Of a stretch of 64,000 bases of DNA, positions 19,878 through 21,746 are shown piece by piece (position 1 is the first letter of the stretch; each line of letters begins with the position of its first letter). Source of the stretch: Bacteroidota bacterium (lineage in GTDB: Bacteria; Bacteroidota; Ignavibacteria; Kapaibacteriales; UBA2268); the NCBI GenBank assembly GCA_048267165.1, contig JBLWYD010000001.1, positions 128,073 to 192,072 of the forward strand, in the 5' to 3' direction. The translations under genes were made by a program, and so were the position numbers. The notes under the pieces are model-generated. The model was not told where the DNA came from, made no database searches, and saw only the letters and a list, made by a program, of their open reading frames with translations.

Positions 19878-20519
19878 ATGATAAATGATCAAATAAAATT
19901 CTTCGATTTTCTTAATAATCGACTCAAATCTGATTTGCCGGGTGCGAAAGCACACATCAAAATGGCACCATTCGGCGATTTGGAGCGACTAAATAATAAT
20001 ATACCAAGAGCGGACGCCAAAAAGAGCGCAGTTCTCCTACTCATTAACGAGAAAATGGAACTTTTGTTCACTCTACGAAGTAGCAAGTTACGCAAACATA
20101 GTGGACAAATCTCATTTCCCGGTGGTAGAGCAGACGATGGCGAAACCTACGAACAAACAGCTCTCCGCGAGACTGAAGAAGAAGTAGGAATTAGCAGTAG
20201 CAAAATAGAACTAATAGGGCGGATGTCTGGGCTATACGTTCCACCTTCGAATAATATAATCCAGCCAGTAATAGGGCGAATTCCTAGTAATATTGATTTA
20301 CTACTAAACCCCGATGAAGTGGAAGAAGCATTCTACGTGCCACTAGAGAGCTTCCTCAATGAAGAAATGCTGAAAACAAAGAACACAGTTTTCAATGGCA
20401 AACCGTTCGCGTATCCTTATTGGGATGTGCACCACAGTGTACCCTTGTGGGGAGCCACAGCTATAGTTATGAGTGAATTTATTTATTTAGTTAATGAGTT
20501 TAGGGAAGGGGGTGATTAA
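19878..20519 (+). CDS. NUDIX hydrolase, CoA pyrophosphatase-like
   Basis: Nudix box GGRADDGETYEQTALRETEEEVGI preceded by SGQISFPGG. The ATG at 19878 keeps the conserved LPG..AH.KMAP N-terminus. Confidence 0.85.
   Translation: MINDQIKFFDFLNNRLKSDLPGAKAHIKMAPFGDLERLNNNIPRADAKKSAVLLLINEKMELLFTLRSSKLRKHSGQISFPGGRADDGETYEQTALRETEEEVGISSSKIELIGRMSGLYVPPSNNIIQPVIGRIPSNIDLLLNPDEVEEAFYVPLESFLNEEMLKTKNTVFNGKPFAYPYWDVHHSVPLWGATAIVMSEFIYLVNEFREGGD
20476..20507. repeat. 32-bp direct repeat, copy 1 (inside the last codons of the NUDIX gene)
   Basis: AATTTATTTATTTAGTTAATGAGTTTAGGGAA; 31/32 identical to 21715-21746. Confidence 0.9.
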
Positions 20520-20935
20520 GGTGATGAGTTTGCTAATTCATTTCTTATATACTCTTTATCTTCAAAGCTAACAGCTCTAGATTTTAGTAATAAGTTTAAG
20601 ATAGCAATATAGTCTTCGTTAGTGATTTGACCACTATATTTAAAATCTCCTTTTAGAATTAATGACTCTATATCCTCTTGGAGTATCTCCTTTGTTTGCC
20701 AGCAATTCACAAAAGTATCTAAGGTGGCATTCAGGATTACAGAATGATTAATCTTTAAAAGAAAATCTTCTCTTTCAGTACCTAAGAATGCCTTTTGATT
20801 TTCTTTTTGACTTGTGCATACAGAGATTAGAAATGGAGTTGAGCTAGAAAGAAATATATGATAATGCGGCTTCTCGGGGAATTCTGGATTCCTAAAATAA
20901 TATACACTTTTCGCCTTAATTGAATAGTTAGCCAT
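20516..20935 (-). CDS. unknown 139-aa protein, candidate toxin partner of the Panacea-domain gene
   Basis: ATG lies 11 nt after the stop of the upstream gene (a TTG at 20941 is also possible). No TM segment and no recognisable toxin motif. Confidence 0.65.
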   Translation of the reverse strand: MANYSIKAKSVYYFRNPEFPEKPHYHIFLSSSTPFLISVCTSQKENQKAFLGTEREDFLLKINHSVILNATLDTFVNCWQTKEILQEDIESLILKGDFKYSGQITNEDYIAILNLLLKSRAVSFEDKEYIRNELANSSP

Positions 20936-20946
20936 TTTCAAGAGTG

Positions 20947-21558
20947 TTAGGCGTTGAATTCTTGGTAGTAGGCCTTACTTGAATTAATTTCCCCTTCACT
21001 CTGAGAACTAAAAATCGTAAGTGGATCATCTTTTGGATTTTCGAAGAAATCACTCATATCGATTGAGATGCTAGATTTAGGATTCTTATTTATTTCTGTC
21101 TTGTGCTTTAACCATTCGGGATATAGATGAGTAATATCTACTAAATCAAAACTTCCCTTATCTTTACTTAGCTGATAAACTTCCTCTAGAACTTCAATAT
21201 CTGTTTCAGAAAATTTACCCTGGTCAACATCTTCAATTGATTGATATGTGTAATTATTTAAAACTTCGATATACAGACTTTTATAATAGTTTTGCTCTTG
21301 ATTAAGTCGATTAGAAGCACCTGTTATATCTTTCGCTAATGAACCAACTGGTCCATATTCCATTGCAAAATATGTGTCATTTGTCAGTGTACTACCATAC
21401 TTTCGCAAATGCAGTCTATCCGCTAACCAATATATTTTTATTGCTTTTAATTTATCTACTTTACCACCCTCTTTTCTTGCTATCCAGTTTAATACCTGTA
21501 CGGATTTCAAGTAATTTCGTCGTAAATTAGGATAATTTGATCTGTTAAATTTTTCCAT
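20947..21558 (-). CDS. DUF4065 / Panacea-domain protein (SocA/PanA-like antitoxin candidate)
   Basis: KAIKIYWLADRLHLRKYGSTLTNDTYFAMEYGPVGS block. The ATG at 21558 is preceded by AGGAG (Shine-Dalgarno) 7 nt upstream. Confidence 0.75.
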   Translation of the reverse strand: MEKFNRSNYPNLRRNYLKSVQVLNWIARKEGGKVDKLKAIKIYWLADRLHLRKYGSTLTNDTYFAMEYGPVGSLAKDITGASNRLNQEQNYYKSLYIEVLNNYTYQSIEDVDQGKFSETDIEVLEEVYQLSKDKGSFDLVDITHLYPEWLKHKTEINKNPKSSISIDMSDFFENPKDDPLTIFSSQSEGEINSSKAYYQEFNA

Positions 21559-21714
21559 GTTCTCACTCCTTTCTGTACAAAAATAATATTTCACATCATT
21601 TTTTCCAAAGTAATTCTTTTTATTTCAATACATTTGCTTGTATATCGCTTAATATCTAAACGAAATAAATACAAAATAGTTTTACCTTAATTCTGACTAC
21701 CTCCCCTACCCCTA

Positions 21715-21746
21715 AATTTATTTACTTAGTTAATGAGTTTAGGGAA
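21715..21746. repeat. 32-bp direct repeat, copy 2
   Basis: AATTTATTTACTTAGTTAATGAGTTTAGGGAA, followed in the NUDIX frame by AAT AAT TCG TAA. Confidence 0.9.

Follow-up and report, generated by a model that had tools for sequence, protein, structure and literature searches.

The closest described relatives of the locus reported here are the PanAT toxin–antitoxin (TA) systems, which were defined by Kurata et al. 2022 (PMC8832971) and in which Panacea-domain antitoxins (PanA) are paired with partners (PanT) belonging to 88 clusters. Nine pairs were validated in that work (its Table 1 has ten, one of which was validated earlier), and all PanAT pairs examined are described there as forming type II complexes. 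The toxins of two validated pairs, P. moraviensis T6 and B. ruminantium T25, are EndoA/PemK/MazF-like by HHpred alone, and the toxicity of both is neutralised by PanA co-expression. NCBI CDD fails to recognise MazF-like toxins in the representatives assayed, and the MazF-like PanTs that passed validation were described as RNase-type toxins (PMC8832971). Ernits et al. 2023 (PMC10440598) further reported that a Panacea domain standing alone is able to neutralise a toxin directly, and that neutralisation can also reside in a C-terminal add-on, such as Phd-C, in which case Panacea may serve as a sensor. The locus described here comprises two adjacent genes, panA and panT, in a 64,000-nucleotide stretch of contig JBLWYD010000001.1 from a Bacteroidota bacterium, the whole of which is termed the window; loci from other contigs are given L numbers. 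The predicted fold of PanT, the families of both proteins and their constant pairing suggest that the locus is, quite probably, a type II PanAT module in which a MazF-fold toxin would act as an RNase and would be neutralised by direct binding of PanA.

PanA is a 203-residue protein without an extra N-terminal domain. Residues 41–149 match the Pfam family SocA_Panacea (PF13274) with 71.1 bits, well above the gathering score of 25.7 (E = 1.9e-19), and the protein is also matched by phrog_1281 of PHROGs (E = 2.8e-23). The Panacea hallmark block KAIKIYWLADRLHLRKYGSTLTNDTYFAMEYGPVGS is present, as stated in the original prediction of a DUF4065/Panacea gene, and so is the AGGAG ribosome-binding site reported upstream of it. 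The 119 PanA relatives of ~200 residues display 33–100% identity, mostly 37–51%, and are conserved over the whole length. This includes the C-terminal tail (residues 150–203, ~54 residues beyond the Pfam domain), which carries a DFF motif among others and is a candidate linear neutraliser of the toxin. The gene for the 139-residue partner starts exactly where it had been placed, 11 nt past the PanA stop, with both genes on the minus strand, which the prediction left unstated. As the spacer has no Shine-Dalgarno sequence, panT may be started by translational coupling or by Shine-Dalgarno-independent initiation. In the relatives, panA and panT mostly overlap by 1–10 nt or are separated by a gap of a few nt.

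At the sequence level PanT is indeed unrecognisable, as originally claimed, with no match in Pfam, NCBIfam, PADLOC or PHROGs at E ≤ 1. Sequence and profile searches of the PDB returned noise alone, for example armadillo repeats at an E-value of 0.03. Close homologs of PanT (94, 84 and 69% identity) share one syntenic slot in related metagenomic contigs and, because all of them occupy that same slot, do not constitute independent evidence. An exhaustive phmmer search with PanT over 1.84 billion cluster representatives revealed 11 proteins at E ≤ 1e-3, a number raised to 20 relatives by a profile search. Residues conserved in the resulting family are F14, H24, C40-T41-S42, D73-T-F-V-N-C78, G102 and S119, of which F14, C78 and S119 are invariant, while His24, placed right after a conserved Pro, is nearly so.

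The structure of PanT was predicted with AlphaFold2 (AF2) from a 21-sequence alignment, giving a model with a pLDDT (predicted local distance difference test) of 87.6 and a pTM (predicted template modelling score) of 0.82. A first model, built from four close sequences, had a pLDDT of 65.9 and meaningless Foldseek matches, and was dropped. A Foldseek search of the PDB with the second model placed MazF structures in all of the top 15 positions (E-values of 2.9e-4 to 2.4e-2, probabilities of 0.99–1.00 and target TM scores of 0.56–0.72), the next match having E = 0.18. The matched proteins include MazF-mt3 and MazF-mt1 of M. tuberculosis and MazF from E. coli, S. aureus, B. subtilis and D. radiodurans. 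In the viral predicted structures of BFVD, the best matches are annotated “Endoribonuclease” and “PemK-like protein”. PanT is thus predicted to adopt the SH3-like β-barrel of MazF/CcdB type, with a C-terminal helix. The AlphaFold/Foldseek check that had been proposed for the partner therefore yielded a confident model but MazF matches rather than a new fold, and the partner, invisible to sequence libraries, is MazF-like by predicted structure. The toxin features for which it had originally been inspected omitted MazF, PemK and CcdB. Deep alignment combined with structure prediction can, as here, place Panacea partners that are invisible by sequence.

The same predicted fold is found in the toxins of the canonical MazEF, Kis-Kid and PemIK systems (PF02452). 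For comparison with these, seven MazF/Kid sequences were aligned and verified; all match PF02452 at E ≤ 6e-24, and the E. coli MazF among them is identical to PDB 3NFC/5CK9. The catalytic pair of E. coli MazF consists of R29 and T52. When the PanT family was aligned with the seven sequences by hhalign, VCTSQ fell on PCTTQ, bringing T41 onto T52, DTFVNCW fell on DGVALADQ, and the C-terminal G-x-I-s segment and its helix fell on GTVAPEEL, while the Arg region remained outside the alignment. Alignment of the family with one MazF sequence was uninformative. Position 41 is Thr or Ser in nearly all family members. PanT and MazF share a C-T-[TS]-Q strand motif (CTTQ in E. coli MazF, CTSQ in the window) and have a similar C-terminal “G-x-v/i-s-x-e” helix. 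Major differences involve the length of PanT, which exceeds that of MazF by ~30 residues, with an inserted helical segment (44–58) and an extra C-terminal helix (124–136), and the presence of invariant Cys78 and Ser119 and nearly invariant His24 instead of the MazF catalytic Arg. The antitoxins also differ, the window pair having a Panacea protein whereas canonical MazEF has a MazE of AbrB/RHH type.

A direct connection to the catalogued PanAT systems was provided by Arcticibacter eurypsychrophilus. A window-family HMM (hidden Markov model), built from an alignment (A4) that excludes the Arcticibacter protein, matched WP_069659218.1 with E = 9e-39 over residues 1–144 of 147; by BLASTP the window PanT and this protein are 26% identical (E = 1e-6). 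Exact-sequence look-up identified WP_069659218.1 as the Arcticibacter partner and WP_069659217.1 as its PanA, which is 42% identical to the window PanA (E = 9e-41). Both accessions are listed under PanT cluster T29 (pT30) in Dataset S1 of PMC8832971, together with members from Marinitoga lauensis, Geminisphaera colitermitum, Hugenholtzia roseola and Dyadobacter alkalitolerans. According to the same dataset, HHpred relates the Marinitoga T29 representative to MazF/EndoA/Kid at 99.4–99.5% and to CcdB at 99.0%, below all MazF and Kid entries listed. By homology to these listed members, the window PanT is a divergent member of the catalogued MazF-like cluster T29. T5 or T8, MazF-like clusters listed in Bacteroidetes, had been expected before the accession look-up gave T29. 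The window locus and T29 pairs have the same organisation, with PanA first, tight coupling and a PanA of ~200 residues without an N-terminal domain; the T29 partners, of ~140–150 residues, are predicted to be MazF-like, as is the 139-residue window PanT. In contrast, the lineage of the window (Kapabacteria/Ignavibacteria-like) is not in that dataset. The T6 and T25 pairs resemble the window pair in combining a Panacea antitoxin with a MazF-like toxin, but they represent other sequence clusters and displayed no similarity to the window PanT in the searches run, which did not include a direct comparison.

The gene neighbourhood was compared for every PanT homolog with enough flanking DNA. In all ~22 distinct contexts the homolog adjoins a Panacea gene, and in 21 of these it lies directly downstream, so that the census called for in the original prediction bears out its picture of a conserved, tightly coupled pair with the antitoxin first. 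The contexts span Bacteroidota, Candidate Phyla Radiation (CPR) bacteria and other metagenomic lineages, and with its 11-nt gap and changing flanks the window pair agrees with the PanAT definition of Kurata et al. (two genes ≤100 nt apart, conserved in at least two species and outside any longer conserved operon). Seven divergent homologs found by protein search (L008–L021) are immediately downstream of a Panacea gene, as are all 15 loci of a metagenome scan seeded on the PanT DTFVDC motif alone; this pattern scan used alignment A4, the broader A6 being too diverse. Conversely, the three PanA relatives looked up all carry a partner-family ORF (open reading frame), of 147 residues in Arcticibacter (E = 9e-39), 145 residues in an Azambacteria metagenome-assembled genome (MAG; E = 6e-22) and 150 residues in L027 (E = 1e-31). 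Flanking genes are unrelated between loci, and include Cas9/Cas1, a type I restriction–modification system with a SLFN/AlbA_2-domain gene (PF04326), GmrSD with a CoiA_N-domain gene, Fic, another TA system and an IS630-type transposase, in addition to the housekeeping genes for guanylate kinase, CorC, a penicillin-binding protein, dihydroorotate dehydrogenase and IF3.

The Candidatus Azambacteria (CPR/Patescibacteria) MAG contains a PanA/PanT module (L031:3001–4064) with the same 11-nt spacer as the window. In its PanT, VPATT replaces VCTSQ and is nearer to VPCTT of E. coli MazF. Term searches of the available part of Dataset S1 (PMC8832971) turned up no CPR taxa. Cluster T29 thus gains a Kapabacteria/Ignavibacteria-like member and is extended to CPR bacteria. 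At L014:984–2457 (also L013 and L015), the PanT relative P0027 has 111 residues, and its similarity to the family ends right after the DTFVDCN motif; in L014, HTH_29/HTH_32 and DDE_3 (IS630-type transposase) genes follow directly. P0027 has the appearance of a toxin gene cut short by insertion of this element, with PanA intact.

Both genes of the window display low ratios of nonsynonymous to synonymous divergence (dN/dS) relative to L001, 0.055 for PanA and 0.14 for PanT, at dS values of 0.87 and 0.60, respectively, against 0.81 for the flanking M16 peptidase gene and 0.82 for the flanking Nudix gene. The low dN/dS and flank-like dS indicate that both genes are kept by selection and have diverged together with the chromosome. 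PanA is better conserved than PanT (42% against 26% identity between window positions 20516–21558 and the Arcticibacter pair, L030:3001–4037). In type II systems the toxin is usually the better conserved of the two. PanA relatives are also far easier to find than PanT relatives (119 against ~20).

Several observations weigh against a MazF-type RNase module. PF02452 (PemK_toxin) misses all 21 members of the PanT family even at E ≤ 10, and the hhalign comparison with the seven MazF/Kid sequences, at E ~0.003, has a probability of only 9–10%. The canonical catalytic Arg (R29 of E. coli MazF) is not conserved in the family. At the x-P position, Arg or Lys is present in few members, Lys in the window's subclade only, and His24 follows the Pro. 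Every T29 member is marked “notest” in Dataset S1. The two Bacteroidota MazF-like PanTs assayed in E. coli had ambiguous outcomes, the C. bovis T5 toxin being toxic, as was its PanA, and the F. xanthum T8 toxin being non-toxic (PMC8832971). In one locus, L027 (1196–2429; also L029), PanT and PanA are head-to-head on opposite strands, 185 nt apart; this is the sole exception to the PanA-then-PanT order, and its PanT has an R-P-H motif.

An alternative is that PanT has the MazF/CcdB fold and a target other than RNA, for example DNA gyrase as in CcdB, with PanA still its direct antitoxin. MazF and CcdB share their fold, the T29 representative has the CcdB match mentioned above, and, besides the missing Arg, residues F14, H24, C78 and S119 differ from the MazF invariants. 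Such a function is nevertheless regarded as unlikely: no CcdB structure is present in the top 50 Foldseek PDB matches of the PanT model, in contrast with 15 of MazF; the Thr/Ser-rich strand of PanT aligns with the strand bearing the MazF catalytic Thr; and Kurata et al. describe the MazF-like PanTs that passed validation as toxins of RNase type (PMC8832971).

It is also rather improbable, if a little less readily dismissed than the proposals that follow, that the conserved module causes no growth arrest in its host, its MazF-fold protein having been attenuated or domesticated to serve in regulation or phage sensing. The absent catalytic Arg, the non-toxic F. xanthum T8 protein and the finding that 8 of the 25 PanTs assayed were not toxic in E. 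coli (PMC8832971) would fit this proposal, as would the sensor role suggested for Panacea (PMC10440598) and the long residence of the module between housekeeping genes, with dS like that of the flanks. However, the two genes stay strictly linked across phyla while their flanks change, which is the signature of a TA system, both genes are under strong purifying selection, and the truncation of the L014 PanT beside an IS630-type transposase is expected of a costly gene.

A mechanism similar to SocAB of Caulobacter, a type VI TA system whose antitoxin has the same Pfam domain, would have PanA hand the toxin over to ClpXP as a proteolytic adaptor instead of inhibiting it stoichiometrically. The Pfam family takes its name from SocA, and PanA has a weak match to the NCBIfam SocA_antitoxin model (NF047745), but PanA is not the SocA equivalog, as this match scores 13.2 bits where the cutoff is 190. 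SocB, which Kurata et al. put in cluster T10, is unrelated to the predicted MazF-fold partner (PMC8832971). With all PanAT pairs examined described as type II complexes in the same work, a SocAB-like mechanism is very improbable. Finally, that PanT represents an undescribed toxin family or fold, as the original prediction put it, is scarcely credible, since the failure of every sequence-profile library to recognise it and the just 11 phmmer relatives are outweighed by the predicted fold match to MazF and by the listing of the family, through WP_069659218.1, as T29 in the 2022 dataset.

As a type II PanAT module with a MazF-fold RNase, the locus would operate as follows. A promoter within the 1.2-kb chromosomal cassette would drive both genes as one transcript, and PanA would bind PanT directly through the Panacea core, the conserved C-terminal tail or both. 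PanT would be freed once PanA is gone, degraded or triggered, which phage infection or loss of the cassette, for instance, could bring about. Free PanT would then act as a sequence-specific endoribonuclease, and RNA cleavage would arrest translation and growth.

The features of the locus are collected in Table 1. The putative promoter was called on the Bacteroidetes consensus, which we take to be TTTG followed by TAnnTTTG; both elements fall in blocks common to the window, L001 and L006, and AGGAG of panA is also kept in L001 and L006. A scan for sigma-70 promoters and terminators gave nothing above chance, and an Rfam scan of the whole window gave no RNA match.

Table 1. Features of the panA–panT locus and of the inserted segment (window coordinates).
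Feature	Position	Strand	Description
panT	20516..20935	-	139 residues, ATG 20935, begins MANYSIKAKSVYYFRNPEFPEKPHYHIF; ORF call; divergent MazF/PemK-fold putative toxin, cluster T29
panA–panT spacer	20936..20946	-	11 nt, without Shine-Dalgarno sequence
panA	20947..21558	-	203-residue Panacea (DUF4065) putative antitoxin, ATG 21558, TAA stop 20947–20949; ORF call
Shine-Dalgarno AGGAG	21566..21570	-	7 nt before panA ATG; read from sequence
Putative Bacteroidota-type promoter	21578..21609	-	TTTG 21609..21606, 20-nt spacer, TATTTTTG = TAnnTTTG 21585..21578
Nudix hydrolase gene	19878..20519	+	Stop overlaps panT stop convergently
Left 32-nt direct repeat	20476..20507		3' end of convergent Nudix gene, codons EFIYLVNEFRE
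Inserted segment	20508..21746		1,239 bp, cassette plus one repeat copy; missing in 5 related genomes
Right 32-nt direct repeat	21715..21746		Followed by original Nudix C-terminus and stop, AATAATTCGTAA = NNS and stop

The description of the pair as part of a repeat-bounded cassette proved correct, the two 32-nt copies being 97% identical. Insertion changed the Nudix C-terminus from RENNS-stop to REGGD-stop. Five related species-level genomes, with M16 peptidases 91–95% identical at the protein level, have empty sites (L022:5920–6012, L023:5827–5919, L024:2508–2600, L025:2426–2518 and L026:5920–6012), in which one repeat copy and the NNS tail are followed by the Nudix stop, 11 nt and the M16 ATG, with no PanAT. 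Relatives of the window are MAGs labelled Ignavibacteriae HGW-4, Candidatus Kapaibacterium and Chlorobiota. In a midpoint-rooted neighbour-joining tree of the flanking genes, in which branch order is weakly resolved, occupied genomes (the window, L001 and the outgroup L006) are interleaved with empty ones, so that the cassette must have been gained or lost at least twice.

In other, unrelated genomes the module likewise lies between long direct repeats, which differ in sequence from locus to locus. They measure 223 nt in L008 (90% identical; 3829–4051/5479–5701), 124 nt in L018 (99%; 1–124/1625–1748), ~100 nt in L016/L019 (84–85%; L016:33–133/1617–1709) and 84 nt in L020 (94%; 1677–1760/2896–2979), while L027 has an exact repeat of 17 nt (1067–1083/2519–2535) that overlaps the 3' end of a convergent gene. 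Exact flanking repeats of ≥17 nt are present in 5 of 21 distinct PanAT loci, whereas among size-matched random intervals 6 of 1,221 have one (0.5%). No recombinase is encoded inside any repeat-bracketed unit. A phage or plasmid origin of the module was considered and dropped, there being no relatives in IMG/VR viral contigs, GenBank phages or PLSDB plasmids, and a literature search on TA cassettes flanked by target duplications gave nothing pertinent.

A bolder and rather doubtful proposal is that T29 PanAT pairs are self-contained, recombinase-less mobile mini-cassettes of 1.2–1.65 kb, which would insert at gene 3' ends or in intergenic DNA and leave long, site-specific direct duplications of 17–223 nt, recombination between the repeats leading to precise loss and regain; the toxin would have the MazF fold but work through a non-canonical His/Cys/Ser active site, possibly on another substrate. 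The occupied and empty alleles, with their 32-nt target duplication, and the comparable long repeats of unrelated loci provide a tractable case for the movement of a tiny TA cassette without a recombinase of its own, and the residual interest of the locus lies mostly in a T29 toxin that lacks the canonical Arg and in a cassette that is bracketed by repeats and varies in presence between genomes. In L016 and L018 (positions 1–2000 of each), the contigs share a nearly identical PanAT unit with identical PanT and part company precisely where the second repeat ends, beyond which one contig has a CoiA_N-domain gene and GmrSD and the other has ABC, thioredoxin and IF3 genes; in L016, similarity goes on weakly past the repeat. 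This arrangement suggests a repeat-delimited cassette hotspot or array.

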